Shown in pieces: positions 11,222 to 40,164 of a stretch of DNA of 64,000 nucleotides. The translations under genes were made by a program, and so were the position numbers. The notes beneath the pieces are model-generated. The model saw nothing but the letters and a program-made list of their open reading frames with translations, made no database searches and was not told where the DNA came from. The stretch comes from Dictyostelium discoideum (Eukaryota). The stretch's first letter is position 1; each line of letters opens with the position of its first letter. The stretch is taken from assembly GCA_000004695.1 (NCBI GenBank), contig CM000155.2, positions 3,360,001 through 3,424,000 of the forward strand. Reading direction: 5' to 3'.

Positions 11222-11530
11222 ATAAAAAAAAATAAATAAAAAATAAAATAAAAAATAAAAAAAAAATTAAAAACATGTTTTAAATAATTGTTTAAATAAA
11301 TAAATAAAAAATTATTAATTAAAAAAAACTTATTTTAATTTATTTAAAAAAAAAAAAAAAAAAATTGTTTTTCTATTTTTAAATTTTTTTTTTTTTGTGA
11401 TTATTATTTATTTTNTATAATTTTTTCCAAGCAAAAAAAAAAAAAATCAAAAAAAAAAAAAAATCGAAACAAAACAAAAAAAAAAAAAAATTTATTTATA
11501 CATATAAATACACCACACACGTAAATAAGA

Positions 11531-12419: not shown

Positions 12420-12457
<38 letters not shown>

Positions 12458-13005: not shown

Positions 13006-13142
13006 AAATAAATAAATAAATATATATTTATTATCACTACAAGTAGATGAAATACTATTTATAGGGATTGTTTTTATTTTTATTTTTTATTTTCACTATT
13101 TTAAATTACCTTTACGATGACAACAACAATAAATACACTATA

Positions 13143-13191
<49 letters not shown>

Positions 13192-14237: not shown

Positions 14238-14288
<51 letters not shown>

Positions 14289-14784
14289 AAATAAAAAAAA
14301 GTAAAAAACAATAGTAAGTATTAACAAATTTAAAAAAAAAAAATTAAAATTTAAAATAAAAAAAAAATCTAAAATGGGCATATTTATATATATAATTGAT
14401 ATATCAGTACAACACCACACACTTATACACCACCCAAACACACCTACGCTCAAATTCATTTTTTTTAAATCCAATACTTACCTCTCTCACTTCAGATATC
14501 TATTTTAAAAAATGTGATAAGTCTTTAAAATTTTACATTTTTTTTTTTTTTTTTTTTAAAAAACAATCTGTAGTAGTTGGTTATTTAAAAATAAATTTAT
14601 AATAAATAATTAAAAATAATATAAATAAATAAATAAATTATTTTTTTTATTTTTTAATTTTTTTAATTTTTTAATTTTAAAAATAAAAAAATATAAAAAG
14701 AGAAAAAAAAAAAAAAAAAAATTAATAATTAATAATCTTATAATCTTATAATCTTAATAATAATAAAAATTAATTATAAAATAT

Positions 14785-14822
<38 letters not shown>

Positions 14823-14877
14823 TTATTTTTTAAAATTAAAAAATATATACCAAAAAAAAATAAAAATAAAAATAAAA

Positions 14878-14895
14878 ATGAATTGTATTAATAAC

Positions 14896-14935
<40 letters not shown>

Positions 14936-15705
14936 TTATGATACCAGATTTAAAAAATAATGATACTGGTAGTAGTGCTGATGATGGAAGAAGTGAAGGA
15001 GTTGCAGACTATCAAGTTTATGGATTTTATACATCTTGTTCATTTAAAGTTTATTTTATGTTTGAAGAATTAAATATACCTTATCAAACTTGTTTAGTAA
15101 ATATTAGATCTGGTGAACATTTTAAAGGTGAGTTTGCAGAAATGTCACCAAATAATAAAATTCCAATGTTAATTGATAATACATATAGTGTCGACAGTGG
15201 TGATGATGATGAACCTTTAAAAATCTTTGAATCTGGTGCAATTTTATTATACTTGGCAGAGAAATATCAAAAGTTTTTACCACCATTATCAAAACCAAAA
15301 GAGAGATGTCAAGTTCAACAATGGCTATCATGGCAAATCTCGGAAATGCAACCAGCTTTAACCTCTTATGTATATTATTTTATGATGGCACCAGAACCAG
15401 TTGCTTTTGGTATGGAAAAAGCTGACCAAGATTTACACAAAATTTTAAAGGTTTTAGATAAACGTTTAGATGATGGTAGAAAATATATTTGTAATGAATT
15501 TTCAATTGCTGATATAGCTTGCTTTGGTTTCGGTTCTTATTTCAATTTAAATGTTTTCAAAGGTTGGAATAAATATGAAAATGTTGTACGTTGGGTAAAT
15601 ACAATGTCTTCAAGACCTTCTATCTCTAAATTATTACCAATTGTTGAACAAACTTTAAGAGTTAGAAAATTAAAAAGATTAGATAATCAAGAATTAGTAC
15701 TTTAA
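14878..15705 (+). CDS. glutathione S-transferase, Nu-class / YfcG-like. Single exon, 275 aa.
   Basis: ESGAILLYLAEKY (GST N-domain motif), MSPNNKIPMLID and FSIADIACFGF align closely with E. coli YfcG/YghU-type GSTs (RISPNNKIPAIVD...LFESGAILLYLAEK...YSIADIACW), judged from memory. It has a poly-Asn N-terminus. Confidence 0.7.
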
Positions 15706-15776
15706 AAAAAAAAAAAAAAATATTTAAAAAAATATTTAAATAAATAAATAAAAATACCCTATTTTGTAAAATAAAA

Positions 15777-16388
15777 CTAATTTAATAATAATTTATAAGT
15801 TTCATTAAATTCTTTATTTGAAATTCTATAAATTTCATTATTCTTAATTAATGGTATGACTAAATAATCATTTTCCTTAAAAATCATTTTTTCACCCCAA
15901 CTTGCTATTAAATAAAATTCATATAATAAATTATTATTATTATTATTTCTAATTTCAATATTTTTATTATTTATTTTCAAAAAATTTAAAATTTCCTTAT
16001 TTACTTTAATTGCTTTTATTTTATTATTTTCATTATTTTTTGGTTTATATAATTTCCATTTATTATCACTATTATTATCATCTGAAATATTAAATAATTC
16101 ATATTTATCATTAAATTTATTAAATGGTATTATATATTGTTCATTTGCATTGGTTTGATTCTTTATTAGGAAATCATCACAATTTTTTATTTTATTTATT
16201 GTTTCTAATCCATCTGATGTAATTGTTTCTACAATTGATCCAATTTGATTAATTTCACATTTAATAGCTTCAATATTTTGAAATTTATAATAAACATTTT
16301 GATTTCCTTGAATATTAAAAAAATTTTCATTTAATAAATTTAATAGTTGATCATTTTGGAAAATTATAATTTCCTTTTGTATTTCCAT
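15777..16388 (-). CDS. hypothetical Asn/Lys-rich protein (203 aa)
   Basis: A true ATG at 16386-16388 and a clean ORF. I recognise no domain. Confidence 0.4.
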   Translation of the reverse strand: MEIQKEIIIFQNDQLLNLLNENFFNIQGNQNVYYKFQNIEAIKCEINQIGSIVETITSDGLETINKIKNCDDFLIKNQTNANEQYIIPFNKFNDKYELFNISDDNNSDNKWKLYKPKNNENNKIKAIKVNKEILNFLKINNKNIEIRNNNNNNLLYEFYLIASWGEKMIFKENDYLVIPLIKNNEIYRISNKEFNETYKLLLN

Positions 16389-16697
16389 TTTAAATTTCTT
16401 GAATTAAACAATTGTGTGTGCGTGTTAAAATAAAAATTTTCAAATAAAAAAAAAAAAAAAAAAATAGAAAAACAAATATCTTTTTTTTATTTTTTTTTTA
16501 TTTTTTTTTTTTTTTCAAACAAAAAAACTCAATTTTAATTTTTTAATTTTTTAATTTTTTAATTTTTATATTTTTTTTAACACACACTTTTTTATACATA
16601 TAATATAGTTTTTAGTTTTTATAATTTGTTTTTTTTTTTTTATAATAATTAAATAGAGTAAAAAAAAAAAGTATATATATATTTAAATTTTATTTAA

Positions 16698-18105
16698 ATG
16701 GGTAGTCCAACTATTAGTGATCAAGAAAAATCCCAAGTTGCCTTTATAGCAGGTAGTAGTTCTGATATTCATTCAACTACTGTTGCAAGATTGTATGAAG
16801 GTAGACAAGGAAGATGGGAATTTATGGCCGTCGGTATTGTTTCTGTTGTTTCAAATCGTGTAGATAAAACAAATTATATCAAAGTTTTCGATTTAAAGGT
16901 AAGTTATTATTATTATTATCATTATTATTATTTACAATATTAAAACTTTTTTTTTTTAAAAAATTAACATATTAATTTTTTTTTTTTTTTTATTATATTA
17001 TTTTTTTAAAAAAAAAAAAGGCCAACTACAGAATCATTTTTGAACAAGAAATTTATGACACTTTTGAATTTCAAAAACAAAGAGATTTCTTTTTTGCATT
17101 TGAAGGTGATTCCTGTGTTTATGGCTTATCATTTGCTGATGTAACTGAAGCAGCTGAATTCTATGGCCAACTTTTAAATTGTAAACAAGGAAATATTGGT
17201 AAAACTGCTGCAATTAATCCAAATACTTCTTCAACCAGTATGTTTTTAATTATTTTTTAATTTACAATAACAATAATAATAATAAAAATAACCTTATTAA
17301 TAATTTTTTTTTTTTTTAAATAGAAATTACTGCATCAACACCAGCACCAAAAGTTGAAAAGAAAAAAGAAAAGAAAGGTTTTATGTCTAAATTCTTTTCA
17401 TCGGAAGAGAAAGATTTGGAAATTTCAGCTCCAACCAACTTTAAACATGAAAGTCATATTGGTTGGGATCCAGAGAATGGTTTTGATATTAAGAATATCC
17501 CACCAGATTGGAGAAAACTTTTCCAATCTGCTGGTATTAAGAAGAGTGAATTAAAGAATGCAGAAACTGCTCAATTCATTGTCAATATCATTGGTGAACA
17601 AATGGTTGGTGGTTCAGCTCCACCACCAACTCAACCAGGTAGATCAGCTCCACCAGCTCCACCATCTTCAAACCAACCAGGTAGATCAGCTCCACCACCA
17701 CCACCATCTGTTGGTAAAAGTGCTCCACCACCACCACCACCATCCCATAAGACACCTGCAGCTCCACCATCAGGCGGAGGTGCTCCACCACCACCACCAC
17801 CTCCACCACCACCTTCTAGTGGTCCACCACCTCCACCACCACCAATGGCCAGTGCTCCTCCATCATCAGGAGGTGGTGGTGCCAGCGGCGGTGGAAGAAA
17901 TGATCTTTTGGCTTCCATTCGTAGTGGTGCAAGTCTTAAGGCTGTTGATAAAACCAATCCACTCCCAGATATTCAAAGTCTTGGTAATGAAGGTTCACGT
18001 TCTTTAGCTGATACTTTAGCTGCAGCTATGGCTAATCGTAGAGGTGGTATGAGAGAAGATGATGAAGAAGATGATGATGACGATGATGAATGGTCAGATT
18101 ATTAA
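16698..18105 (+). CDS. wasA: WASP (WH1-basic-CRIB/GBD-polyPro-WH2-central-acidic). The exons are join(16698..16898,17021..17237,17324..18105) = 399 aa.
   Basis: Exon 1 is WH1/EVH1-like. The introns are GTAAGT...AAG (phase 0) and GTATGT...AATAG (phase 1). Exon 3 has the CRIB motif ISAPTNFKHESHIGWDPENGF, PPPPP tracts, WH2 (GGRNDLLASIRSGASLKAVDK) and an acidic tail DDEEDDDDDDEWSDY with the Arp2/3-binding Trp. The reconstructed length equals the 399 aa I recall for Dictyostelium WasA. Confidence 0.8.
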
Positions 18106-18444
18106 ATTATTCTTTAACAAAATTCAAATTCAAAAAAATCATTAAATAAAGATTTCTTTATTTCTTTCACCAAAAAAAAAAAAAAATTTTATTTCTTTTA
18201 TTTTAAAAAAAAAAAAATTATTAATAAATCATATTTTTGATCAAAACTTTTTTTCTGATTTTTTTATTATTTTTTTTTTTTTAATTTTAATTATTTTTTT
18301 TTTTAATTTTTTTTTTTTTTTTTTTTTTTTTAATTTTTAATTTTTTTTTTTTTTTTCAATTTAATTTGTTGAAAATCAATTATTTTGTTGTATTTATAGA
18401 TAGTGAATTGTAGGGTTAAAGAAGGAAATAAAAAAAAAAAAAAA

Positions 18445-18606
18445 ATGGATGTAAATAATTTAAAACAAATTTTAGAAGAGACGTCAGCTCTCTCTGATCA
18501 TAAAACAAAAACAGAGAAATATAAATCAATTCTTCAACAACTTGTTGAATCAAAACAAGTAGCACCATTAAAAGTTTTTATTACACATTGTATGTATTAT
18601 TTATTA

Positions 18607-18648
<42 letters not shown>

Positions 18649-19169
18649 TCATTATTTACTTTATTAAATTTTAATTAAATTTAATTATTTTTTTTTAAAA
18701 AATAATAGTGACAGATGAATCAACACCATTAGTAATTTCACGTACAATTTTATTATCATTTACATCAAGTCATAAAACATTACCAGAGGATATTCAAATG
18801 GAGTTAGGTATTTTCGTATTGGATCGTATTCAAAATAGAGTTGTAGCATTTGAAGAACAAGTATCAGAGATTCGTTATAATCTTGCTAAATTATATGAAC
18901 GTCAAGAGAATTGGAGAGAATCTGCTCGTTGTCTTATTGCTATTCCATTGGATAGTAGTCAACGTGTTATCTCACCAGAATATAAAGTTAAAATCTATGT
19001 AAAGATTGCACGTCTCTTCCTTGAGGAAGAAGAATCTGGTCAAGCTGAAACTTATATCAATAGAGCAAGTGATTCATTACATTTAGTTAAAAATCAAAAA
19101 TTAATTTTAGCACATAAAGTAAGTAGATATACAAATAATTTATAATATATTCATATATAACATATTAAT

Positions 19170-19200
<31 letters not shown>

Positions 19201-19841
19201 GTTTAAAAAAAAAGACATGCTTTGCAAGAATTATGGATTATAAAAGAATGTTTTTAAAAGCAAGTTTAAGATATTATGATTTATCACAATGTTTACCAAA
19301 GGATACAGAGAGAATGCATGCATTATCATGTGCAATTGTTTGTGCAATTTTGGATAAAGCAGGACCACAAAGATCACGTACATTGGCAACATTGTATAAG
19401 GATGAGAGAAGTCAACAACTTGGTGTTTATACATTTTTAGAAAAGATGTTTTTAGAAAGAATCTTAAAGAAAACTGAAGTTAAAAAGTTTGCAGAACAAT
19501 TGAAACCACATCAAATGGCATTACTCTCTGATGGTAATACCGTATTGGATAGAGCTGTAATCGAACATAATCTCTTATCTGCAAGTAAACTCTACAATAA
19601 TATCACTTTTGATGAATTGGGTTCTCTTTTGGAAATTCAAGCTGAAAAAGCTGAAAAAGTCGCCTCAAAAATGGTCTGTGAAGAACGTCTCATTGGTTCA
19701 ATCGATCAAATCGAACGTCTCATTCAATTTGAAAATGTTGGTGATTCTCTCACTCAATGGGATAAAAAAATTGAAGGTCTTTGTATTCATATGAATAATA
19801 TTATTGAATCAATTTCAAAATATCCAGAATTTATTGTATAA
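18445..19841 (+). CDS. csn4: COP9 signalosome subunit 4 (PCI domain). The exons are join(18445..18589,18709..19118,19215..19841) = 393 aa.
   Basis: Strong colinear similarity to human COPS4 ([10 protein letters not shown] / SLVISRQLL; [25 protein letters not shown] / [25 protein letters not shown]; [29 protein letters not shown] is identical in part; [17 protein letters not shown]). Introns are GTATGT...AATAATAG (phase 1) and GTAAGT...AAAG (phase 0). Confidence 0.85.
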
Positions 19842-20607
19842 AATAATAATAATAATAAATAAATAAATAAATAATAAATAATTAATAACGAATGAAATAA
19901 AAAAAATAAAAACTAAAATCCTTTCCTTTTTTTTTTTTTTTTTTTTTTTTTTGTTCAAACAGGTATGAATTTTTTTTTTTGTTTAATAAATAATTTTTAA
20001 TTAAAATTCTTAAAAAAATGGAACATGTCTAAAATTTTATCTAAACAATTTAAAATTTTATTTTTTTATTTTTTTTATTTAAATAATAAAAATAAAAACA
20101 AATAAAAAAGATAAATGGAATTATTTAATTGGAAAATTGTAATCATTTTTTAAATAATATTGCATAGTTTTTTTTTTTTTAATTTATTTTTATTTAAAAA
20201 TTAATTAAAATGGAAATCGGGAAATATTTATTGGATTGATAATATTGGAAATAGAATAAATTTAATATTGAACTAGATAAGGAAATAAAAGTTAGGGATT
20301 GGCTTTGGCTTAATAATAAAGATGAAAGAAGTTAAAGGAACTATTTATAGAAAGAAAATTGNTAAAAAAAAAAAAAAAAAAAAAAACCAACGCTTGGGCC
20401 TTTAAAGAAAATTGGAAAAAAAAAAAAAAAAAAAAAAATTTCATCAAAATTTGTAAACGACATTTATTTTTTTTTAATTTTTTTTTTTTTATTTTTTATT
20501 TTTTATTTTTTATTTTTTATTTTTTTTTTTTTTTTTTTTTTTTTTTTAGCGATANCTCCTTTTTTTTTAATAATTTTCAACAACAATAAATTTATGTAGT
20601 TTCATAA

Positions 20608-23976
<3,369 letters not shown>

Positions 23977-24036
23977 AATATAAATAAATAAATAAAAAAA
24001 CAAAATAGTATTATTATATAATAGGTAAAAAGAGTA

Positions 24037-24136
24037 NNNNNNNNNNNNNNNNNNNNNNNNNNNNNNNNNNNNNNNNNNNNNNNNNNNNNNNNNNNNNNNN
24101 NNNNNNNNNNNNNNNNNNNNNNNNNNNNNNNNNNNN
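24037..24136. other. assembly gap (100 N)
   Basis: A literal run of n, at the left edge of the retroelement cluster. Confidence 1.
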
Positions 24137-25497
24137 TTCACTTAATGTTGATGGTGTTATTGTTTTTTTCTAAGAAAGAGAGTGGTCTTGTGATTGATGG
24201 AGGTGCATGATATCTAATTGATTATCAAGTCCTTTGTTTAGTGAGAGTTGGTTTGTTGGGGTTTGTTTTTTAGGTGTGTCGATTTTTGCACTTTTATTTT
24301 TTGTTGTTGAGGTTGTGGAGGTATTATTTGTATTGGTCGTGTTGTTATCTGTATGATTTAACTGTAATTCAGTTGAGTGATCATCAGCCATTGTTGAAAA
24401 GTATATAGGACGATAGCCCTTGCTTTAATGAGCAAAAAAAGGGTAAAATTAAGAGGAATGAATGTGGCGGTGAAGATATAACAGTGATTTATTTATTATA
24501 TGTATAAATTCTCCACATAAACATTTATGGCCCTAGATGATACAGCTCAAAAGGTAATAGAAGCATCACTAGAAAACGTAGATGAACTAACAAGAATAGA
24601 GAATGAGATCAATACCCAATCGATAAAAAATCAAGAAATTAAAACAAAATCAGAAAAACCTATTGAACCACCATCTCCATACAATACACCAATAAAACAA
24701 CACGGCGAAACAAAGAGACTAACAACGGAAGAAAAACTTAGAGAGGTAAATGATATCTTCGACTTCACCAGCCCAAACACTGATGCAATAAGAAAAATAG
24801 AATTCCCACTTTCAATCCCTTCAAATCAATGGTTCTTCTCCTCTCCAATAAAACATATCATGAGTTTCAGCCCAACCTATGGTACACCATCGAAAATTAT
24901 CGATTCACCAAGTAAATTGTTAAACACACCAAAAAACAAACAACAAGACAAAACAAACAGGACCAACAAAACACCAGTCAAACCAAAATTGGGTGAATAT
25001 GGACAAAAAAGCATAAAAACAAAAATGGATGAAGATATAGACAACTTCAACAAGGAAATTCTAAAACAAATCAATAAATCAAAAAACCCCACAAACACAC
25101 AAGACCAACAACACAACGAACAAAGTAAAGATCAGTTAGAAGACAAAATAAACCAGAAACTTCAAAAGGTAGATAAAAATCTACCCCAAATAAAACTATA
25201 AAGAAAAACACAATAAGAATAGGTGTTTGGAACGTCCAAGGATCCAACACCATCCAATCTGCCAGCATAATAAACACCGTTTTAGACAACAACAAGCTGG
25301 ACGCAGCACTTCTAACTGAAACAAATATAAAAACAAATAAAATTTACTCAATAAATCAACAATATAAAAACAAAATAACACACCACGCACCAATTGATAA
25401 AACAGGACAAGGGGTGTCACAAATCATCATCAACACCCGCAATAGAACTTCCTAAACATCTCAAAAAATACAATAATTCACTCAGTACTTTCTATAA

Positions 25498-25555
<58 letters not shown>
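24137..25555 (+). mobile_element. truncated non-LTR (LINE-like) retrotransposon of the tRNA-gene-targeted TRE5 type. It has a 5' UTR, ORF1 (24527..25201, 224 aa), an N-terminal fragment of ORF2 with an apurinic-endonuclease start (25208..25453), then an approx. 55-nt poly(A).
   Basis: GC content rises sharply versus the flanks. ORF2 begins IRIGVWNVQGSNTIQSASIINTVLDNNKLDAALLTETNIK, an APE-type endonuclease N-terminus. It terminates in A55 (25501-25555) and lies about 2 kb upstream of a tRNA gene. Confidence 0.7.
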
Positions 25556-25557
<2 letters not shown>

Positions 25558-26273
25558 CCAAGTTAATCAGAAAAATAAAAAAGATAGAAAGAAAATAAAA
25601 TGAAAATCACAAACAACACCACAAATATTAAGCAACACAAATGCCTACAAAAAATAAGCGAAATTGTGGATAAAACTCAATTAAAAAAAAAACAATTCAA
25701 ATACGTCATAAACATCAATCACGAACCAGACGATAAAATAAAAAAAGATTTAGAAAAAAGTTGGGACAAAAAAGATGTTTTAATCAAAAAGACCCTGTAA
25801 AAAAAAAAAAAAAATAAAATGAGATCTAGCATCTCAAGGAGAAGCAAATAATAATTGCGTTATCCAATTCAAAAAAAAAAAAAAAAAAAAACAATTCAAA
25901 AAAAAAGAAAAAACAAACAACAACAACAATCTCTTTTTTTGATTATTTCATTTTTCATATAAAAAAGACTTAAAAAACAAATAAATAAATAAATAAACTA
26001 TTTTAAAAAGCCATCTTTTTACTTTATTGTAATTTATTATTTGTTTCGTTTTGAGAATTTTGCGTAGCAAAATTTTCAAAAAAAAAGCAAAAAATAATCA
26101 GATCGAAAAAAACAAACAACAACAACAATCTCTTTTTTTGATTATTTCATTTTTCATATAAAAAAGACTTAAAAAACAAATAAATAAAAAAAGCAAAAAA
26201 TAATCAGATCGAAAAAAACAAACAACAACAACAATCTCTTTTTTTGATTATTTCATTTTTCATATAAAAAAGA

Positions 26274-26310
<37 letters not shown>

Positions 26311-26900
26311 GGAACCCAAGTTAATCAGAAAATTTCCAGATTTTTAACTTTTTAAAGTAAAATAAAAAAAATAGAAAGAAAAAAAGATGAAAATTACAAA
26401 CAACACCACAAATATTAAGCAACACAAATGCCTACAAAAAATAAGTGAAATTGTGGATAAAACTCAAACAAAAAAAAAAAAAAAAAAGTAAACTAACCCC
26501 TCTTTTAAAGACCCTGTAAAAAAAAAAAAAAAAAACCTAAAAATAAAATGAGATCTAGCATCTCAAGGAGAAGCAACTAATAATTGCGTTATCCAATTCA
26601 AAAAAAAAAAAGGTTTATTAAAAAAAGTCCACCCAAATATATATAACATCACATAACGCACTTTACCCTCGACATAAAAAAAAAAAAAAAAAAAAAAATA
26701 TATATAAAACTAATAACCCGGAAAAAAAAAAAAAAAGGGGACCATTGTAAAATTAAAACCTACTATATTAAAATGAGATTAATCTCATGAAGAAGCAACT
26801 CACAATTGCGTTATTCCATTCAAAAAAAATGGTTTATTGAAAAAATAATTGCGTTATCCAATTCAAAAAAAAAAAAAAAGAAGAAACTACAAATAAGAGA
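25556..26900 (+). mobile_element. mosaic of duplicated retroelement modules: two copies of a ~320-bp segment and tandem ~90-bp 3'-module repeats, each ending in oligo(A)
   Basis: The segment CCAAGTTAATCAGAAAA...ATGAAAATCACAAACAACACCACAAATATTAAGCAACACAAATGCCTACAAAAAATAAG at 25556-25800 recurs at 26325-26470. GACCCTGTAAAAA...ATGAGATCTAGCATCTCAAGGAGAAGCAA.TAATAATTGCGTTATCCAATTC occurs at 25790-25880 and 26510-26610, and a degenerate copy lies at 26760-26870. The unit AGCAAAAAATAATCAGATCGAAAAAAACAAACAACAACAACAATCTCTTTTTTTGATTATTTCATTTTTCATATAAAAAAGACTTAAAAA is found at 25905-25975 (partial), 26087-26175 and 26198-26285, followed by A25. Confidence 0.6.
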
Positions 26901-27426
26901 TTAATAGTTTATTTGTATATTTAAGATAGTAAAGAAAACACAATTCTTTTTATTTAATATTTTTAGAGTATTTATATTAATATTTTGAGTACCAGGATGA
27001 GCCTTCTATAGTCAGTTAGTATTTAATATTATTTATTGTTATTGGCAAACCTTCTAAAGTCGGTTATTACTAGTAACTGAATTATATTATGATTCTTATG
27101 ATTTCCATATTAATATATGTCAATACATAAATCCATATTAGTTTTAATATGGTGAATCATTACATTATTTATATTTAAATTTATTTATATTTTTATTTAA
27201 TAGCTTAATAATAATCTGAATCAAAATTAAATTATTTTTTTATATTTATAATAAATTAAATGAGTGACATTTATATAATTTGACAAATTTAAGATATTTA
27301 TTTTATTTTTAAATAATATAAATAGTATAATTTTATAAAAAATAAGGTAATTTTATTAGTATAAAAAGAAAAATAATTTTATATTCAGTGGGTTACATAC
27401 ATAAAATATAATTACAAAAGACCACT

Positions 27427-27540
27427 TTCGTTATATTTTTTTTTTTTTTTTTTTTTAAGTCTTTTTTATATGAAAAATGAAATAATCAAAAAAAGAGATT
27501 GTTGTTGTTGTTAGTTATTTTTCGATCTGATTATTTTCAA
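27427..27540 (-). mobile_element. 5'-truncated copy of the same retroelement 3' module, inverted, with an A20 tail. It ends 45 bp upstream of tRNA-Phe.
   Basis: 27447-27540 is the reverse complement of the 90-bp unit above (TAAGTCTTTTTTATATGAAAAATGAAATAATCAAAAAAAGAGATTGTTGTTGTTG...). T20 at 27427-27446 is the oligo(A) on the minus strand. 27541-27584 is the spacer to the tRNA, consistent with the ~48-bp upstream integration rule of TRE5 elements. Confidence 0.6.
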
Positions 27541-27584
27541 AACTTAAATATCCTTACTGCTTATAAAAACAAAATTTTCATCAA

Positions 27585-27658
27585 GCCTTAGTAGCTCAGT
27601 TGGTACGAGCGTGAGACTGAAGATCTTAAGGTCGCTGGTTCGATCCCGGCCTGAGGCA
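27585..27658 (+). tRNA. tRNA-Phe (anticodon GAA)
   Basis: GCCTTAGTAGCTCAGTTGGTACGAGCGTGAGACTGAAGATCTTAAGGTCGCTGGTTCGATCCCGGCCTGAGGCA. The 7-bp acceptor stem GCCTTAG/CTGAGGC pairs, the anticodon loop is CTGAAGA, the T-arm is GCTGG-TTCGATC-CCGGC, and the discriminator is A. Internal A box TAGCTCAGTTGG and B box GGTTCGATCC are present. Confidence 0.9.
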
Positions 27659-27682
27659 AAGATTTTAAAATAAAAATATTTG

Positions 27683-27702
27683 ATCGCAAGTTCGATCCCT
27701 GT
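27683..27702 (+). promoter_or_regulatory. ex-B box (extra B-box-like element downstream of a Dictyostelium tRNA gene)
   Basis: GATCGCAAGTTCGATCCCTG, with the core AGTTCGATCCC, lies about 33 nt after the tRNA 3' end. A duplicated B-box at this distance is a known feature of many D. discoideum tRNA genes. Confidence 0.55.
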
Positions 27703-28738
27703 TTTAGGTATTTTATTTGTTTTTTTATAAATCGTAATGAGCTTCGAATTCCAGCTAACGTTCTATTCATAATTTATATGTGATAACCCTCTTTGTTTAT
27801 TATCTATATAGGAAAAAATTATTCCAATTATATTAAATGAAAATTTTCAGTTTTATTATCTTATTACTCACAAATTTAAATATGTTAAAATTATATAAAT
27901 ATACACGCCAAAGAGCTTTTTTGAAAAAACATAAAAAACCAAAAAAACCTGAAAAACATAAAAAGAAAAAAAAAAAAACAAAAAAAAATCTTAAATACCC
28001 CAATAAACCTAAAATAAAAAAAAACCAAATTAAAAAAAAAACCTAAAAACCTTAAAGAACCTAAAAAAAACAAAAAATCCTAAAAACCTTAAAAAACCCA
28101 AAAAAACTAAAAAAAACTAAACAAAAAATAAAAAACCCACTTAACACAAAATTACTCTTCACCACTTTAATGCTGAAATTTTTACATCCAACCACCCTTA
28201 TTCTTTTTATTTTTTTTAATTTTTTTATTTTTTTTATTTTTTTTAGTGGTCCAAAGAGCATATAAAATGACTAAAATAACTAATTTTTCTTTTTATTTTT
28301 TTTTTTCGCATTGGCGTGTAAATTTATAATTAAAAAATAAAATAAAATAAAATTATTAAAGATATATCAATTATTATTATTAAATTACACGTGATATTAA
28401 TATTAATTATGCACATTGTTTTTAAAAATTTCAACACATTAAAAAAAAAACTTGTAACTCACAAATTATTTTTTATCTCTTTGTCCAATAATTTTTATTC
28501 TTGTATGAATTGAAATTATAATTGTAATATATTATTCAATTATAAACTGGAAAACAAATTAACAAAATTTATTCTAATTTTAGTTAAAAAAATTCTTTGA
28601 TTAAAAAAATTGCCGAATTTTTATTTTTTTTTTATTTTAATATTATTTTTTTTTTTTTTATATTTCGAAAGAAAAATATAAAAAGAAATAAAAATCAAAA
28701 GTCATATTCATATATCAAAATATACAAGTTTCAAAAAA

Positions 28739-29063
28739 ATGAATAAGGTAAAACCTAGGAAATTTAAACATAAATAATTTTAGATTTTTTTTTTTTTTAC
28801 TAATTCCAAAATTAAAGTTATTAAGTTTAATAGGATTTGCTCTTTTCTATGCTTTATTTCTTTTCTCTGTAGGCTCAAATGCTGAAGCAAATGGGTGCTC
28901 TGTTTACGTCGAACCTTATCAGTACTACGGTTTTTCGTGTCTGGACATGTCAATAAATTGCAACATACCATTTAAAACTTTTATGAGAATTAATAATTTA
29001 GATATGAAAAAGGATTGCGGTTACGAAAAAGTTGTATTGGGTAAAAGATATTGTTGTAATTAA
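28739..29063 (+). CDS. small secreted Cys-rich peptide (84 aa). The exons are join(28739..28747,28818..29063).
   Basis: A 9-nt first exon ATG AAT AAG, donor GTAAAA, acceptor ATTAAAG at 28811-28817. Exon 2 encodes LLSLIGFALFYALFLFSVGSNAEA (signal peptide) then NGCSVYVEPYQYYGFSCLDMSINCNIPFKTFMRINNLDMKKDCGYEKVVLGKRYCCN with 8 Cys. The local GC is above background. Confidence 0.45.
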
Positions 29064-29681
29064 ACAATGATAAACAAAATTTAATAAATTCTCTTTATGA
29101 AATTATTATTTTCAAAACTTTCAAATCATAAGTCCCAATTTTTTTTTTTTTTTTAATTTTGTAAAATTTTATTTTATCTTTTTATAACATTAAAATATTC
29201 TATTTTAATTATTAATGTTTATTCTATTGTTGTTAATTTAATTAAAATTATATTCAATTAAATATTTTATTAAACATTTCCATAAAGGGTTAAAAAAATA
29301 ATATAATTAATTTTAAATTAAATTTTAAAAAAAATAAATATAAAAAAATAATATAAAAAAATTAATGGAAATTAATTTAGAAAGAATTAATTAGAATTAT
29401 TCAGAGTAATAATTAATATTAATTTTAGAAAATAAGAATTAAAATGCTATACATAAAACTATAAAAACCCCTTTATATATATATATATATAAATAATAAA
29501 CTTCTTTTATTCGTCTCCCCATTGCTAAATTGTCTTCATTTATTTAGCAAGAATAATAGATAAAAAATAATTAAATAATAAACAAATTTAACTATTGTTA
29601 AATGATTCCTGTAAATGTTACAAAGATATTCATTATTATTATTTTTTATTATTTATTTAAACATTTTTATTTTTATTTTTT

Positions 29682-31511
<1,830 letters not shown>

Positions 31512-32092
31512 TTTTTCATTATGTTTTCAAAAAGTAAATAATAAAAGGTAAATGCTTTTTTTTTCTTTTTTTTTTTTTTTTGGATTTTTATTTTTTTTTT
31601 TTTTTTTTTTTTGGTTGATGATGTGGTTTGTAATGGGTACTTTTTCTTTTTTTTTTTTTAATTTTTCTTTTTCTTTTTCTCTTTATTTTTTTTTTTAACA
31701 TAAATATCAACAACCACTCAAGATTCGAAACACTTTTTTTTTTATTTTGTTCCGTTTTAACCGAACTTTTTTTTTTTTCTTTTTTTTTTATTTTTTTAAA
31801 AATAAAAAAAATATCTAAAATTTAAATTAATGCTGCAAAGATTTTTATTATTTTATTTTTTTTTTTATTTTTTATTTTTTATTTTTTTTTATTGAGTCAA
31901 TATTTTCCTGATCAATTTCTTATTTATTTTTTAATTTTAAAATTGATAACCCACTCGATTTGAAAATAGAATTTAATAATGTAAATACATTTTTTTTATC
32001 CACTTTTCCAAATCCCCACTTTTTCAATTTTTTTACTTTTCCAATTCCCCACATTATCAATTTTTAATTTGATTATTTTCAAATATATTTAC

Positions 32093-32128
<36 letters not shown>

Positions 32129-32239
32129 GATAAAAAAAAAAAAAAAAAATAAGAATTTTCTTAAAGAGAGAGATAGAATTATTTACAAGTTTATTTTGTT
32201 ATTATTATTTTTTTTTTTTTTTTTTTTTAAAAAAATTAA

Positions 32240-32656
32240 TTAATTTTTTGGTAATAAAAGTTCTAACCTTTTAGTTATTGGAATTAATAATTCATTATCA
32301 ATATTATTTGCCAAAAGATTAATAGTGAATAGTGTATGATTTTTAATTAAATTATCCACAATACTCTTTGCACCAACTGAACTAATCTTATTATTATATA
32401 ATGATAATCTCGATAAAATATTATTAAAAGGAAACACTTGATTAGCAATTGATGTTGCACCAATATCACCAATTGAATTACAAGATAAATCTAAATTTGT
32501 TATAGTTTTATTTGACTTCAATGCAAAAGAAATCTCTTTTGCACCAATTGCACCAATTGAATTATATGATAAATCAATAAATTCAATCACATTATTCTCT
32601 TTAATTAATTTTACTAATGATAATACACCATCACTTACAACTATATTTTTATCATC

Positions 32657-32696
<40 letters not shown>

Positions 32697-34277
32697 GGTG
32701 GTGGTGAAGCTTCTTTTGGATTTGTTGTTGTTGTTGTTGTTGATTGAATATGTGAAGATTCAATAGAAGTTATTAATGATTGTGATAATGAAATTGATTT
32801 AATTGTTTTATTTTTAATTAATTGATTTGCAAGTACTGAAACACCATAATTACCAAGGGAATTACTTGATAGATCTAATTGAGTTAAATTTATATTATCA
32901 TTTATTAAACTAAATGATTTTGCTAATTTAATAGCACCTAATGCTTCTAAATTATTACTAAATAAATTTAAATATTTTATATTTGAATTCTTTAAAAATG
33001 AACCAATATATTTCGCACCTCTATGACAAATTGTATTACAAGAGAAATCAATTGATGTAATTGGTGATACACAATTAGAAGAAGAGGATGATGATGATGA
33101 TGATGATGAGGATGATGATAAAACTTCAAATGATTTTGATAATTGAATTATTCCATTTGAATTTATCCAATTAATTGATAAATCCAATTGTGTCAATGTT
33201 TTATTATTAATTATAATATCAGAGAAAGAAGAAGCACCACTATCTTCAATACAATTACTACTTAAATTCAATGTAGTAATCATTGTATTCTCATTGTATG
33301 CAATTGATTTCGATAATAATTTAGCACCTTGATCACCAATTCTATTACATGATAAATCAATATTTAAAATTGACCTATTCAATGATAATCCAAATGCAAT
33401 ATATCCAACCGCTTGATTATCAATTAAATTTCTTGATAAATTTAATGATTTTAATGATTTATTCTTTCCTAATGAATTTTTAAATGTTAATCCAATTTTT
33501 GTTATTGCTGTCGTTATTGTTGATTGTGAAATTTCTGTTGGTGTTGCTGTTGGTATTATTATTATTGATGAAGATTCTGGTGATGATGATTCTGGTGATG
33601 ATGATGAAGAAGTAGATGATGATGATGATGGTGATAATGAAAGTTTACAATTTGATAAATTTAAATCAGTTAATGATTGATTAAGTGAAATCATTTCAGC
33701 AAATGCTAAAGTACCTTCTTGAAATAATGAATTACAACTATACTGTAATGATGTTATTGAATTATTAATTGATAATGCTTTTGCAATTGCAACTGAACCA
33801 AATTGTTTAATATCATTAAATGATAAATTCAATGACTGAATAGATTTATTACTTGATAAACCATCAGCTAGTATAATTGCAGATTCATTAGATAATTGAT
33901 TATATGATAAATCCAATGACGATAATGAAAGAGGTGTAATTGTTTTAAGTATATTTGAAAATTTAGATAATCCCACAAATCCATTACTAGTCGACTCTTT
34001 ACCACCAATTTTACAACGACCTAAATCCAATGACCAAAGTATCGATTTATTGCCACTCATAATATCATTGATTATACCAATGGTGGAATTCGATGTCATC
34101 AATTTTATTGTTAACTTTATTTTAAAATATTCTGGTAAATTAACTAACGACTTTAATTGATTCAATAATCCTAAATCAATTTGGTTAAATGCTAATTCTA
34201 AATTTATTAAATTTGAATGATCTTTTAAATCATTTATAAATTCTTTTAAATTATTATTTCCATTATTTCCATTATTT

Positions 34278-34315
<38 letters not shown>

Positions 34316-34642
34316 TAAAAAATTACAATATAATATATTTAATTCAATTAAATTCTCTAAACTTTTAATTAATTTTGATAATTTTAATAAATTTAATTTA
34401 CATTGTTTTAATGATAATGTTGATGTTGATTTAAATGATGATAATATTTTTATTGGTAAATCTAGTATATCATTATTATTAAATTCTAAGAAATGTATTG
34501 TTTCTTTACAATATTTATTCCACTTTTTATCAATTAATGTTAATTGAAAATAATCTGCTGTTAATCTATTATTACTAATTAATGAAATAATCTTTTTAAT
34601 TATTATAACTGGTAATTTATTAATATTATCAACACTAATCAT
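32240..34642 (-). CDS. leucine-rich repeat protein of the ribonuclease-inhibitor (RNI) type, with a possible N-terminal F-box-like segment. 800 aa.
   Basis: The ATG is at 34640-34642. There are at least 12 repeats of the ~28-aa RNI-type LRR (LxxLDLSxNxIGxxGAxxLAxALxxNxSLxx). The N-terminus LPVIIIKKIISLI resembles an F-box core. It has Ser/Thr-rich linkers. Confidence 0.7.
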
Positions 34643-35177
34643 TTTTTTGATTTTTTATTTTTATTTTTATTATTAATATTAATATTATTATTATTATTAT
34701 TATTATTATAAAAAATGATAAAAAAAGGAAAAAAATAAAAACTAAAAATATAAAGGAGAAGGAATTAATTTCTTTTTTTTTTTTTTATTTTTTATTTTTT
34801 GTATGTAAAAAATAAGAAAATATAAAAAAAAAAAAAAAAAAATTTGTTTTTTAATTTTTATTTTTTATATGTGAAATTATTTATTTGTGTATATAGATTA
34901 ACTGTTATTAAAAACATTGAGAAAAGTGTGTGTGTGTGGTGTGAGTGAGTATTGTTTATTATAATTAATATTAAAATTTAAATTTAAAAAAAAATAAAAA
35001 ATAAAAAATAAATAAAAAAAAAAAAAAACTGAAAAATTAATTTTTTTTTTTTTTTTTTTTTGTAAAAAAACACAACCAATTTCCTCAAATTAGATCAACA
35101 ATAATTCGATATTTATTTTTTTAATTTTTCTTTTTTTTATATTGCCACCATTTTAATATTAAAAAATAAATTTTATT

Positions 35178-35787
35178 ATGACTAGTGTAAGCAGTGATAG
35201 TAGAAAACAATTTAAAGGTTCAGGTGATCATGTATTTGATTTTGATAATAAAGAAAATCATGATTTCCTTTCATTAACAATAAAACAAGATAATAATAAT
35301 AATAATAATAATAACACCAATGTTTCATTATCACCATCAATTAAAAGTCAAGCAACATCTTCCACTGGTGGTAATAAGAATCAAATATTTTCACAAATGA
35401 GAGAATTAGATAAAAAATCATTAATGTTAATTGAAACTTATTATAGAGATAAATTAATAACTTATCAAGAAAAGTAAGTTATAATTTTTAAAATAAACAA
35501 ATAAAAACAAATGAAAACAAATAAATTAATTAATTAATAAATAAATACTAACTAATTTTTATTTATTATTATTATTATTAGATTAAAAAGAGAATTAGAA
35601 CAAATATATAATAAAAAATTACAATCATTAAAAATTCAATATGATAGTGATTCTTATTTAAAATTTAAACAATTTGAACTTGAAACTAAAAAAGCATTAT
35701 TGTTACTATTAAAAGAATTCCAAGATTTAAAGAAATCAAAACAACAACAAGAAAAACAATTAAAATTACAACAAATTAAACAAGAGA

Positions 35788-35863
<76 letters not shown>

Positions 35864-36091
35864 TGATGACCAACAAAAAGATATAGATAATAGTAATGAT
35901 ATTGTTAATGATTTTAAAACAGATAAAATATTAAAAGAAAAAGAAGAAATTTTAAATAAATTAGAATTAATAACGAAATCAATAACAGATTTATTTATTC
36001 AACAAGTTGATATCTCTACTGATACTATCGACTTTCAATCTTTTTTATCAAATATTGTAGCAACGACGACAACAACAACTGCAACAATATC

Positions 36092-36098
<7 letters not shown>
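35178..36098 (+). CDS. hypothetical coiled-coil protein. The exons are join(35178..35473,35582..36098).
   Basis: The donor GTAAGT is at 35474 (phase 2) and the acceptor TATTATTAG ends at 35581. The frame continues into track ORF 35700..36098. It is K/E/Q-rich and heptad-like, with an (AAT)n poly-N run. Confidence 0.5.
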
Positions 36099-36138
<40 letters not shown>

Positions 36139-36259
36139 AAATAAAATAATAGTAATAATTGTTGTAATATTATAAAAAAAGATGTATTTTCTTTATTATT
36201 AATTTTTTTATTTTTTATTTTAAAATATACATATATATAGCGCGTTTTATATATATATA

Positions 36260-37009
36260 TTAATTTGTTGTATTTGTATCAGGAGTTGTAATTGTTGTTT
36301 TTGATTGATCTATTAATTCTGGGAAAATATTGACAAATTCGTGAATTTCATCTATACAATAATCGACATGAGGATCATTTGAAGTAGCACCAACCAAAAC
36401 AGTGTACATACCAGCTTTTTTTGCTTCTACTAAATTCTCTACAACATCATCGAAAAACACACAACCAGATGCATCGGTAGTGTCAGCTTTTTTCATTGCC
36501 ATTTGGTAGGCGACTGGATGAGGTTTTGAAAAGTCCATCATTTCTAAATAATCTAACCAAGCATCGAAACAATCATCAATTTCCAATTCACGTGTAACAC
36601 GTTTACAATGACCAATGTCGGCATTTGAAAAGATCACCTTTTTGACACCACTCTTTACACTCTTGAGACATGCATGTAATCGTGCATCTGGTTTTAAATG
36701 ACTCTTTAAATCTAATCCACCATGAACATAATCTAAATATTTGTCAATGTTTACTTCATGATTCATCATTAAACCTTTTAATGTGAGGCCATATGTTTTA
36801 TAATAATGATTTCTAACTTTATCTACCTCTTCCATTGGTAAATTCAATATGATTGACATATATTGAGTGATTCTATTACTAACTTGTGCTGCTAATCCAC
36901 ATGATTTTGGATATAATGTATTATCTAAATCAAATAATAATGTATGAATTTTACGTTCACCATTATTCTTTATTAAATTATCTGTTGAATTAATTTCTGC
37001 TACTGTCAT
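36260..37009 (-). CDS. HAD-superfamily pyrimidine 5'-nucleotidase (Sdt1/SSM1-like). 249 aa.
   Basis: The ATG is at 37007-37009. The HAD motif I is LLFDLDNTLY, with YYKTYGLTLKGLMMNH, KPHPVAYQMAM and VFFDD (motif IV). It is colinear with yeast Sdt1p, judged from memory. Confidence 0.75.
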   Translation of the reverse strand: MTVAEINSTDNLIKNNGERKIHTLLFDLDNTLYPKSCGLAAQVSNRITQYMSIILNLPMEEVDKVRNHYYKTYGLTLKGLMMNHEVNIDKYLDYVHGGLDLKSHLKPDARLHACLKSVKSGVKKVIFSNADIGHCKRVTRELEIDDCFDAWLDYLEMMDFSKPHPVAYQMAMKKADTTDASGCVFFDDVVENLVEAKKAGMYTVLVGATSNDPHVDYCIDEIHEFVNIFPELIDQSKTTITTPDTNTTN

Positions 37010-38571
37010 TTTTATTTATTTATTATTGTAATTATTTTTTTATACTAATAAAAAAAAAAAAAAGGAATATTATGTTAATTTTTTTTTTTTTTTTTTATAA
37101 TATATAAATAAATATTTTAAAAGAGAGAGATAGAGATAGAGAGAGTGAAAGAAAGAGTGAATGAATTAATGATAAAAAAAAAAAAAAAAAAAAAAACCTA
37201 TTTATATTTAAAATTTAATATTGCCATTTAATTTTTTTTTTTTATTTTAAAAAAAAAAAAATAAAATATGTGGGATGGTGGTAAGTGTTTATTTAGGGTG
37301 TGTTTATTATGTATAATTACCAGTTGGGGAATTTGGGGGTTTAAAATGCCAAAAAAAAAAAAAAAAATTTTTTTTAAGAGGGGTGGTGTATATATATGTA
37401 TTTGAAGGAATGTAATAGTATTAAAAATTGTAATAATACCCAATAAGAAAGTTTATAGATAATGGTTTGTAATAAAATTATTATTATTATTATTATTATC
37501 TATGTTTTGAAATTATTTGTTGTAATTAATTTGATGGTATGGAAATAAAAAAAAAATGATAAAAAAAAAAAAAAAGGTGGGTTTTTTTTTTTTTAATTTT
37601 ATTTTTTTTTTTTTTTTCAAATTTATCAAAATTTTAGGAAAATAAAAATTAAATTAATTAAAATATTTTTTTTTTACCCCCCAAACCGCAAGGCACCAAA
37701 ATTTTTTTTTTAAGCAGTTATAATTCATCACTATTTTGAAACAATAACGAAAATGAATTTCATTTTTTTTTTTTCCCTAATAAATGACAAAAAATAATAA
37801 AAAAAAAAGAAAAAAAAATAAAAAAAAATAAAAAAAAAAAAAAGAAAAAAACAATTAAACAAAAGAAAAATTAATTAATTAAAATTTAAAAAAAAAATGA
37901 TTTGAAAAAAAAAAAAAAAAAAAAAATATAACCAAATGGTGCCAGGTGGAAGTTTCTAGCACTAAAAAGGTGTAAAATTATTTTTTTTTTTTTTATTTTT
38001 TTTTTTTTTTTGGTGTATGCAAACGTTATTTTAATATAACCTTAATCAAATTTAAAAAATTAAAAAAAAAAAAAATTTAAAAAAAATAAATTATTTAAAA
38101 AACATTTACAAATTTATTTTATAATAATATTATTTTTCGTACATCAAAAAATGTGAAAATATTTTAATTAATTATTTATTTTATTTTGGTTTTTTTTTTT
38201 TTTTTTTTTTTAAACAAAATAATTTTTTTTTTTTTATTTTAATCACCACTTTTAAATTTGATTAAATAAATAATTTTTTATTTATTCATTTTTAAAAAAC
38301 GATATAAAACATTTAACACTTCAAAAAAAAAAAAAATAAAAAAATAAAAAAAAACACTTCAAAAAAAATAAAAAATAAAATATAAAAATAAAAAATAAAA
38401 TCTTAAAAAACCACATATAAAATTTTCCATATCGGTATTAGTATTATTAATTTTATATTATTCTAAAATTAATCATTTATAGTTTTTATAATAAAAATAA
38501 TAATTATAATAATAATAATAATAATCCAAATTCGTAATAAGGAATAAAAAAAAAAAAAAAAAAAAAAAAAA

Positions 38572-40098: not shown

Positions 40099-40164
40099 AA
40101 AAAAAAAAATAAAAAAATAAAATAAAATAAACTTTTTATTTGTAAATATAATTAATTTTATTAT

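Follow-up and report, generated by a model that had tools for sequence, protein, structure and literature searches.

We identified a locus in Dictyostelium discoideum that is very probably a tandem pile-up of TRE5-type retrotransposon copies lying between two head-to-head tRNA genes. It is part of a 64,000-nt stretch of DNA that was analysed as a whole, here called the window. The tRNA genes flanking the copies are, with little doubt, a minus-strand tRNA-Glu(UUC), lost in an assembly gap of the window, and a plus-strand tRNA-Phe(GAA). The locus is known biology; TRE5-A, TRE5-A.2, TRE5-C and TRE-TRE tandems at D. discoideum tRNA genes have been described for decades. The TRE names used here rest on published landmarks (lengths, residue positions and architecture) rather than on direct alignment to consensus sequences.

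We compared the window with an independent, gapless D. discoideum assembly (GCA_054883475.1), in which the syntenic locus is L002 and the left flank of the gap lies in L007. From 24519 rightwards, the window and L002 are collinear over 17 kb (99.46% identity). Within 24519-27720 they differ by just 14 substitutions and by the lengths of A-runs. This part of the structure is therefore not an assembly artefact, as it was recovered in an independent assembly. In unique DNA the two match at 100%, so the strains are practically the same. The features of the region are as follows.

24037 to 24136, no strand: assembly gap of 100 N; GCA_054883475.1 places its flanks 66 kb apart, inverted relative to each other
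24137 to 24516, minus strand: 5' end of a TRE3-type non-LTR retrotransposon, continuing into the gap; 5' UTR from 24516 down to 24392, ORF start (MADDHSTELQ..) from 24391 down to 24170
24517 to 25891, plus strand: element 1, a TRE5-A.2-type copy whose 5' part is absent in the window, as seen by comparison with L002
24527 to 25201, plus strand: C-terminal 224 codons of TRE5-A ORF1; 2 of 224 residues differ from protein P0008
25204 to 25445, plus strand: N-terminal remnant of ORF2; translation begins IRIGVWNVQG..LLTET
25446 to 25499, plus strand: surviving ORF2 end / 3' UTR of element 1
25500 to 25555, plus strand: internal A56 run ahead of the 3' B-module; A30 in L002
25556 to 25789, plus strand: 3' B-module with duplicate ORF1 start (ATG 25600); 99.5% identical to the 5' B-module of element 1 in L002
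25790 to 25870, plus strand: C-module, 3'-terminal ~81 nt as in TRE5-A.2, followed by an A21 tail (25871-25891)
25892 to 25906, plus strand: target-site duplication of element 1, right copy, 15 bp, CAATTCAAAAAAAAA; left copy in L002 only (18013-17999)
25907 to 26611, plus strand: element 2, 705 bp, a putative A-B-C deletion derivative of TRE5-A, with its module parts located as in the next five lines
25907 to 26104, plus strand: A-module of element 2, 198 nt; 100% identical over 165 nt to both A copies of L002
26105 to 26210, plus strand: second A of element 2, with a 93-nt internal deletion
26211 to 26276, plus strand: A(1-66) of element 2, followed by A30 (26277-26306)
26307 to 26487, plus strand: B-module of element 2; ATG 26387, 34 codons
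26488 to 26599, plus strand: C-module of element 2, followed by an A12 tail (26600-26611)
26612 to 26626, plus strand: target-site duplication of element 3, left copy, 15 bp, GGTTTATTAAAAAAA
26627 to 26829, plus strand: element 3, a 5'-truncated TRE5-C-like 3' end without B-module; variant C-module to 26821, then A8
26831 to 26845, plus strand: target-site duplication of element 3, right copy, GGTTTATTGAAAAAA
26846 to 26879, plus strand: element 4, an extremely 5'-truncated TRE5-A; last 19 nt of the C-module and A15
26880 to 27435, no strand: AT-rich unique spacer, 100% identical to L002
27436 to 27537, minus strand: element 5, a solo TRE5-A 5' fragment of 102 bp; 5' end towards tRNA-Phe, 47 nt upstream of it
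27585 to 27658, plus strand: tRNA-Phe(GAA); second B-box copy at 27690-27698

The repeats, ORFs and A-runs described in the original prediction are present where it had placed them. Its reading of the region as TRE5-A/DRE-family non-LTR retrotransposons targeted to tRNA genes agrees with ORF1, the modules and the C-module landmarks, and the target-site duplications support repeated integrations. It had also suspected that the gap conceals further structure. This proved correct, as L002 contains the tRNA-Glu(UUC) gene and the 5' part of element 1. Leftwards from the position of window 24519, L002 carries a complete ORF1, a B-module, an A-run, A(1-66) and a 198-nt A-module, followed by tRNA-Glu(UUC) on the opposite strand. 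This tRNA gene, present in L002 only, agrees with the published Glu(UUC) primer. A short C-tail lies between it and element 1 in L002, without a simple explanation.

Element 1 is complete in L002, where it measures 2,360 bp in the order A-A(1-66)-An-B/ORF1-ORF2 remnant-An-B-C. The published TRE5-A ORF1 protein is 51 kDa, with an I10* mutant (PMC3159450, PMC5911963). The complete ORF1 found here is 444 aa long in L002 and in AX4 protein P0010, begins MKITNNTTNI, and has Ile as residue 10, in line with that description. What had been listed separately as a LINE-like ORF1 and a 66-aa ORF are two parts of this one D. discoideum protein, with the ORF at 24527-25201 as its C-terminal part and the MKITNN.. 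ORFs as its N-terminal part. TRE5-A ORF2 encodes APE-RT-zinc finger. The ORF2 remnant of element 1 (83 aa) is 100% identical in L002 and partly found at another compared locus, L001; Pfam and PDB sequence searches gave no significant APE match for it. It is in the -1 frame relative to ORF1 (24527 mod 3 = 2; 25204 mod 3 = 1), and TRE5-A ORF2 is known to use a -1 frameshift (PMC5911963). The remaining ORF2, including RT and zinc finger, is deleted, which is a hallmark of TRE5-A.2.

The 3' end of element 1 carries further landmarks. A B-module duplication in the 3' UTR (290 bp, with the ORF1 start) is unique to TRE5-A (PMC3159450), and the B-module length that we reconstructed is 289 nt (267 + 22). 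The A-run in front of this module had been taken for an A55 tail, but it is A56 and internal. The C-module folds into a predicted three-stem hairpin (z-score -3.1). Numbered from the 3' end (..CCAATTC), its residues T15, C26, A35 and C38 coincide with the mutation sites in the literature, and each is part of a predicted stem; in the published TRE5-A hairpin, C38 and A35 are in stem I and C26 and T15 in stem III (PMC3159450). The two copies of the element 1 target-site duplication match at 15/15 positions. We therefore regard element 1 with considerable confidence as a non-autonomous TRE5-A.2. It resembles TRE5-A.2 in its AB-ORF1-BC architecture, 444-aa ORF1, near-complete ORF2 deletion, C-module hairpin and shortened BC junction with just the 3' ~81-87 nt of C. 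The integration 47-49 nt upstream of a tRNA gene, the 5' end towards the tRNA and the 15-bp target-site duplication are also shared. Apparent differences are an extra partial A-module, A(1-66), and a long internal A-run before each B-module; in the window, the gap and TRE3-type sequence take the place of the 5' third of the copy.

Element 2 starts with the same 198-nt unit that forms the extreme 5' end of element 1 in L002, upstream of B, and TRE5-A has a 200-bp A-module at its 5' end. This unit is partially repeated within element 2, as a tandem array at 26078-26306 (period 106, 2.2 copies) with an extra copy at 25908-25993. The original prediction had read these repeats as a ~90-bp 3' module; the repeat unit is in fact 106 nt and belongs to the 5' A-module. 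We also considered it as the 3' end of TRE5-B, an element without C-module. This was rejected, as the L002 unit is upstream of a B-module and ORF1, forms the tRNA-proximal 5' end and has a full length of 198 nt. Two repeated module pairs connect elements 1 and 2: 25569-25692 with 26356-26479 (93.5%, E 3e-48) and 25799-25882 with 26525-26611 (95%). These are the two ~320-bp modules thought to carry a 66-aa ORF each. Both are B+C modules, and the second holds only 34 ORF codons.

Element 3 is flanked by a target-site duplication that matches at 14/15 positions, and this 15-mer pattern is found nowhere else in the window. Its C-module is 72-77% identical to the TRE5-A C-module, and the sequence upstream is unrelated to B. 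The hairpin region is 51 nt, compared with 54 nt, and has the same three-stem fold (-13.2 kcal/mol at 22 C). Published TRE5-C has a C-module ~78% identical to that of TRE5-A.1, a 51-nt hairpin of -12.5 kcal/mol and no 3' B-module (PMC3159450). Element 3 is thus TRE5-C-like in C-module identity, hairpin length and the lack of a preceding B-module, but at ~200 bp and without coding sequence its family assignment is tentative. Element 4 is the outermost and presumably the oldest member of the stack. Target-site duplications were also sought around elements 2, 4 and 5, and none was convincing.

Element 5 joins the final ~15 nt of an A copy to A(1-66) and an oligo(A)21, and is 98% identical to 26197-26297 in inverted orientation. 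An inverted copy near the tRNA gene had been predicted at 45 nt; it is there, at 47 nt. TRE5-A integrates 47 +/- 3 nt upstream of tRNA genes (PMC5391098), always with its 5' end towards the tRNA (PMC3159450). Element 5 obeys this rule with respect to tRNA-Phe, as does element 1 with respect to tRNA-Glu(UUC), from which its 5' end is separated by 49 nt in L002. The plus-strand stack has its 3' ends towards tRNA-Phe, and since the orientation rule is strict, this is the wrong orientation for that gene. Most likely by a wide margin, the plus-strand stack was targeted at the minus-strand tRNA-Glu(UUC), and there is a similarly strong case that element 5 is the sole member belonging to tRNA-Phe. 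The AT-rich spacer at 26880-27435, of which no further copy was detected in the window or in the compared loci, presumably represents the intergenic sequence that originally separated the two divergent tRNA genes.

A TRE5 stack of this kind explains the locus with high probability. TRE5 elements insert ~47 nt upstream of tRNA genes, 5' end towards the tRNA, through target-primed reverse transcription; the targeting step rests on literature in which TFIIIB on the tRNA gene is recognised by the ORF1 protein. The plus-strand tandem stack would have grown at tRNA-Glu through four or more integrations in succession, each newer copy inserting between the tRNA gene and the older ones. The order from oldest to youngest may then be element 4, element 3, element 2 and element 1. 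One further TRE5-A integration would have taken place at tRNA-Phe, with element 5 as its only survivor. In published TRE-TRE tandems, successive copies are head-to-tail and not inserted into each other, with the youngest beside the tRNA gene (PMC5391098). The stack has the same head-to-tail arrangement. Unlike those tandems, it combines a TRE5-A.2 with an A-B-C mini-derivative, a TRE5-C-like end and a 19-nt tail, and a second tRNA gene, divergent and beyond its far end, carries a fragment of its own.

Elements 5 and 2 resemble the products of deletions between direct repeats within one element, similar to solo-LTR formation or to 5'-truncated LINE copies, except that the repeats would be homopolymer runs or a 290-bp module rather than LTRs. 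Element 5 was most likely shrunk by deletion between its internal and terminal A-runs, and element 2 may have arisen by deletion between its 5' and 3' B-modules. Alternatively, element 5 could have been retrotransposed in its present form from a short transcript, driven by the A-module and ending at the internal A-run, rather than being a deletion remnant, but we consider this improbable. If true, the TRE5-A machinery would mobilise RNA lacking the C-module hairpin via internal oligo(A) priming, a step towards a SINE-like derivative.

The original prediction assigned the whole set of fragments to TRE5-type insertions targeting tRNA-Phe(GAA), with later rearrangement and with the ~100-bp unit as a 3' module. 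This is understandable from the window, where no tRNA gene other than tRNA-Phe can be seen close to the region and the inverted unit ends just upstream of it. We regard it as very improbable because the plus-strand copies violate the orientation rule and lie 0.7-3 kb from tRNA-Phe, while L002 carries a correctly placed and oriented tRNA-Glu(UUC) for them and a full-length copy that has the ~100-bp unit at its 5' end. For the plus-strand stack, L002 already refutes it. A different possibility is that elements 1 and 2 are in tandem because TRE5-A modules were duplicated locally or recombined unequally, instead of through independent retrotransposition. The two share their starting nucleotide and have A-modules with 100% identity over 165 nt, and the partial tandem duplication of the A-module indicates that slippage or recombination does happen here. 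However, a common 5' end is expected of full-length transcripts, and element 1 has a perfect 15-bp target-site duplication and its own A21 tail. In addition, elements 1 and 2 are just 93.5% and 95% identical in their B- and C-modules and their BC deletions differ, making a duplication unlikely and favoring separate integrations.

The remaining question concerns the left edge, where the original prediction noted a GC-enriched block. The GC content does rise (0.31-0.36 over 24200-25400 vs 0.06-0.2 in the flanks), but the left 380 bp (24137-24516) are a minus-strand TRE3-type element rather than TRE5. This fragment is 98.6% identical to L001 20808-21086. At L001, the TRE3-type element begins 62 nt downstream of tRNA-Ala(AGC), and a gene from the same ATG matches PF03372 and PF00078. 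In being non-LTR (APE + RT) and in this position, it resembles the TRE3 family (TRE3-A to -D), whose members sit 40-150 nt downstream of tRNA genes (PMC5911963). Unlike them, the window copy does not lie downstream of a tRNA gene, nor next to one. A homology search with its minus-strand ORF found two short unnamed AX4 proteins only, and no TRE3 subfamily was assigned. The fragment abuts the middle of ORF1 and is missing from the syntenic L002; it is probably a chimeric contig end, the alternative being a strain-specific insertion. The junction at 24514-24519 and the gap join could be real in the source strain, if a TRE3-type element inserted into element 1, a 66-kb segment was inverted, or both. 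The junction is within contiguous sequence and exactly at the TRE3-type 5' terminus, as a genuine insertion boundary would be, and a contig break inside such a repeat is natural. Nevertheless, this is doubtful, as L002 has an intact element 1 at the site despite the practically identical strains, the site is outside the 40-150 nt range downstream of any tRNA gene, and TREs normally avoid inserting into each other (PMC5391098). Moreover, 8/14 substitutions are within the 600 bp adjoining the junction, and this stretch is closer to the L001 TRE5-A copy (99.5%) than to the syntenic copy (~99.0%), which points to confusion between repeats; at the other 'breakpoint' there is an AT-rich palindrome and no TRE. 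A chimeric contig end or a scaffolding error thus remains the preferred reading. Window 24036 corresponds to L007 2376 (record position 3,372,362), with window coordinates going up while record coordinates go down, whereas window 24519 corresponds to L002 16964 (record position 3,306,200), with both increasing in parallel. The scaffold join at 24037-24136 is therefore untrustworthy.

Wider searches added little. A Pfam scan had no match above threshold for ORF1, the ORF2 remnant, the 66-aa ORF or the minus-strand ORF. tRNA was the sole match in an Rfam scan of 23000-29500, which was empty in the spacer. No further TRE module copies were found elsewhere in the window, including the flanks of tRNA-Leu(AAG) at 47225-47306. 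A homology search with the left-flank gene had no match at E <= 1e-10, and low-complexity words probably swamped it. Exact-protein look-ups with the window ORF1, AX4 proteins P0001 and P0010, and the ORF at 19233-19841 were without result; one other gave 1.3-kb Logan contigs only. For annotation, the ORFs in this region are retrotransposon fragments and not host genes, and the former "3' module" is the A-module, a putative promoter.

Between 24200 and 25400 the window has a GC content of 0.31-0.36, compared with a background of 0.06-0.2. A 224-aa ORF (24527-25201) is followed, in a different frame, by the translation IRIGVWNVQGSN...LLTET and then by a run of 56 adenines (A56, 25500-25555; other A-runs are named likewise). 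Two related ~300-bp blocks open with MKITNNTTNIKQHKCLQ, a 106-nt unit is arrayed in tandem at 26078-26306 with an extra copy at 25908-25993, and an inverted copy of the repeat unit (27436-27537) lies 47 nt upstream of tRNA-Phe(GAA). The BLAST E-values of the internal similarities in this region (1e-31 to 1e-51) place them far beyond chance. All repeats, ORFs, the A-run and the inverted copy listed in the original prediction were found in the sequence.

Used as a protein query, the 224-aa ORF matched Dictyostelium discoideum proteins only. The longest match (P0010, 444 aa) starts with MKITNNTTNIKQHKCLQ and ends with ...KVDKNLPQIKL, so the 224-aa ORF and a 66-aa ORF are the C-terminal and N-terminal parts of a single protein. 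The LINE-like ORF1 and the 66-aa ORF previously noted thus exist, but both fall within P0010 and are not separate units. The databases label these proteins hypothetical, so we identified the family via published landmarks. TRE5-A has the architecture AB-ORF1/ORF2-BC, with an A-module of 200 bp, a 290-bp B-module that sets the ORF1 start and has a second copy in the 3' UTR (a duplication that TRE5-B and TRE5-C lack), and a C-module of 134-137 bp (Siol et al. 2011, PMC3159450). Those authors mutated ORF1 Ile-10 and four C-module bases, C38/A35 and C26/T15, numbered from the module's 3' end (PMC3159450). Residue 10 is also Ile here, and the C-module end ...GAGATCTAGCATCTCAAGGAGAAGCAAATAATAATTGCGTTATCCAATTC (to 25870) has C38, A35, C26 and T15 at the published positions, all four in stems of a predicted three-stem hairpin (z = -3.1). 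The ORF1 length of 444 aa is consistent with the published 51-kDa protein, and the -1 frame of the ORF2 remnant agrees with published TRE5-A (PMC5911963). On the strength of these landmarks, rather than alignment to a reference sequence, we assign the element to TRE5-A, the TRE5-A/DRE family proposed at the outset.

Exact look-up of the 609-aa protein in the right flank retrieved a syntenic locus (L002) from the gapless D. discoideum assembly GCA_054883475.1. Window positions 24519-41549 are collinear with L002 at 99.46% identity. Across 24519-27720 the two differ by 14 substitutions and the lengths of three A-runs, and identity is 100% both in the unique spacer and over the 2 kb that follow tRNA-Phe. 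Given this agreement, the architecture to the right of 24519 is real, and the strains behind the two assemblies are practically the same. Going left from 24519, L002 contains, in order, the remainder of an intact 444-aa ORF1, a 5' B-module and an A-run, and further left a partial A copy of 66 nt, a unit of 198 nt and then tRNA-Glu(UUC). This tRNA gene, which agrees with the published Glu(UUC) primer, is 49 nt from the 198-nt unit and lies on the other strand, so that the two 5' ends face each other. The position of the 198-nt unit, beyond the B-module and ORF1 at the tRNA-Glu side, identifies it as the 5' A-module. By the L002 order, what had been taken for a ~90-bp 3' module is the first half of this 198-nt 5' A-module, repeated.

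The region between the gap and tRNA-Phe was mapped as follows, with A(1-66) denoting the first 66 nt of the A-module.

24517-25891, plus strand: element 1, a TRE5-A.2-type copy (2,360 bp in L002)
25892-25906, plus strand: target-site duplication of element 1, CAATTCAAAAAAAAA, its other copy beside tRNA-Glu in L002
25907-26611, plus strand: element 2, a TRE5-A A-B-C deletion derivative
26627-26829, plus strand: element 3, a TRE5-C-like 3' end
26846-26879, plus strand: element 4, the last 19 nt of the C-module and A15
26880-27435, no strand: spacer of AT-rich, unique DNA
27436-27537, minus strand: element 5, the end of one A copy, A(1-66) and A21, 5' end toward tRNA-Phe, 47 nt away
27585-27658: tRNA-Phe(GAA)

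Element 1 carries the C-terminal half of ORF1, an 83-codon ORF2 N-terminus and ~54 nt of the ORF2 end. After A56 come the 3' B-module (25556-25789) and the final ~81 nt of C (25790-25870), and the element closes with an A21 tail. The supposed A55 tail is therefore A56, which precedes the 3' B-module inside the element. Element 1 and TRE5-A.2 share a near-total ORF2 deletion and a shortened BC junction (PMC3159450). Element 2 contains a 198-nt A, an A that lacks 93 nt internally, A(1-66) and A30, then a B-module with just 34 ORF1 codons, a C-module retaining ~20 nt more than that of element 1, and a tail of A12. The pattern GGTTTATT[A/G]AAAAAA borders element 3 at 26612-26626 and 26831-26845 and is found nowhere else in the window. 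The element 3 C-module shares 72-77% identity with the TRE5-A one, compared with 78% for published TRE5-C, and its terminal hairpin region spans 51 nt, as in TRE5-C, with a predicted fold of -13.2 kcal/mol at 22 C versus -12.5 (PMC3159450).

TRE5-A inserts upstream of tRNA genes at a distance of 47 +/- 3 nt (PMC5391098), with its 5' end invariably toward the tRNA (PMC3159450), and multiple integrations lead to TRE-TRE tandems without insertion into one another (PMC5391098). Elements 1-4 are oriented wrongly for tRNA-Phe and correctly for the tRNA-Glu hidden in the window. By the orientation of these four plus-strand elements, the stack records successive integrations at tRNA-Glu. In the presumed insertion order, from element 4 through 3 and 2 to 1, element 1 would be the youngest, being closest to tRNA-Glu and having an intact ORF1 and a perfect target-site duplication. 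tRNA-Phe was the target of element 5 only. The original prediction correctly read repeated insertion from this region but mistook tRNA-Phe for the target of the whole stack. Elements 2 and 5 resemble the products of deletions, possibly between two B-modules plus an A-run in element 2 and between internal and terminal A-runs in element 5. For the targeting of tRNA genes we adopt TFIIIB-ORF1 from the literature as the putative route. The locus is a textbook TRE5 cluster.

Two further pieces were observed. In L002 (18047-17999), ~20 nt of a C-module end and A9 (ATAATTGCGTTATCCAATTCAAAAAAAAA) lie between tRNA-Glu and element 1, ~19 nt from tRNA-Glu and ahead of the A-module; this is either a minimal 5'-truncated insertion or a piece that element 2 gained at its 5' end by template switching. 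Another locus (L001, 9526-11336) has a TRE5-A.2 copy whose 5' part is inverted in a twin-priming-like manner: C and B modules occupy the minus strand (9526-9915), whereas ORF1 to the ORF2 start is plus-strand (10001-11215) and stops 47 nt short of tRNA-Asp(GUC), on its upstream side.

The minus strand of 24137-24516 is 98.6% identical to L001 20808-21086, where a non-LTR element has its 5' end; the product called from this element contains APE and RT domains. The element begins downstream of tRNA-Ala(AGC), 62 nt away, so by the published positional criterion (PMC5911963) the segment would be TRE3-type; it is not TRE5. Its exact 5' terminus adjoins ORF1 codon ~219 in the window, with 3 nt between, which could reflect a real insertion. 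However, L002 has no TRE3-type insertion at this codon, and the ORF1 stretch by the junction is nearer the L001 TRE5-A copy (99.5%) than the syntenic L002 copy. Eight of the 14 substitutions fall at 24616-25117, ~500 bp of ORF1 within 600 bp of the junction, whereas the unique DNA flanking it matches L002 at 100% over 2.6 kb. This cluster suggests a repeat mix-up in assembly, or gene conversion.

On the other side of the gap, 8564-24036 is collinear with L007, a locus on the same gapless-assembly contig as L002. The flanks of the gap at 24037-24136 (100 N) are 66 kb apart and in opposite orientation in JBTAPE010000001.1 (record coordinates), bearing out the earlier warning about this gap. The gap at 8464-8563, by contrast, hides just ~570 bp and is collinear with GCA_054883475.1. 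An AT-rich palindrome without a TRE terminates the left contig on its far side. The join at 24037-24136 reflects a scaffolding error or else an inversion of 66 kb, and we consider a scaffolding error combined with a chimeric contig end likelier than a real insertion or inversion.

The left-flank gene (21112-23976) is a very Asn-rich, 954-codon ORF. Its last 358 codons had 0 matches at E <= 1e-10 in a 5.8-billion-protein database, probably a limit of word-based candidate selection on low-complexity sequence; the gene is nonetheless called in GCA_054883475.1 (L007 2436-5803). The flanks of tRNA-Leu(AAG) (47225-47306, minus strand) contain none of the TRE5-A, TRE5-C or TRE3-type modules of this study. 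Downstream of tRNA-Phe, at a distance of 270-480 nt, lies a degenerate A/C-rich microsatellite (27924-28136) with units resembling AAAAACCTAAAA and periods of 9-52. Its sequence is the same in L002 and showed no similarity to the TRE pieces of this study. The B-box core GTTCGATCC, present inside tRNA-Phe at 27638-27646, has a second exact copy at 27690-27698, 32 nt downstream of the gene (chance expectation, 0.03 matches in the window). This copy resembles the external B box described for Dictyostelium tRNA genes.
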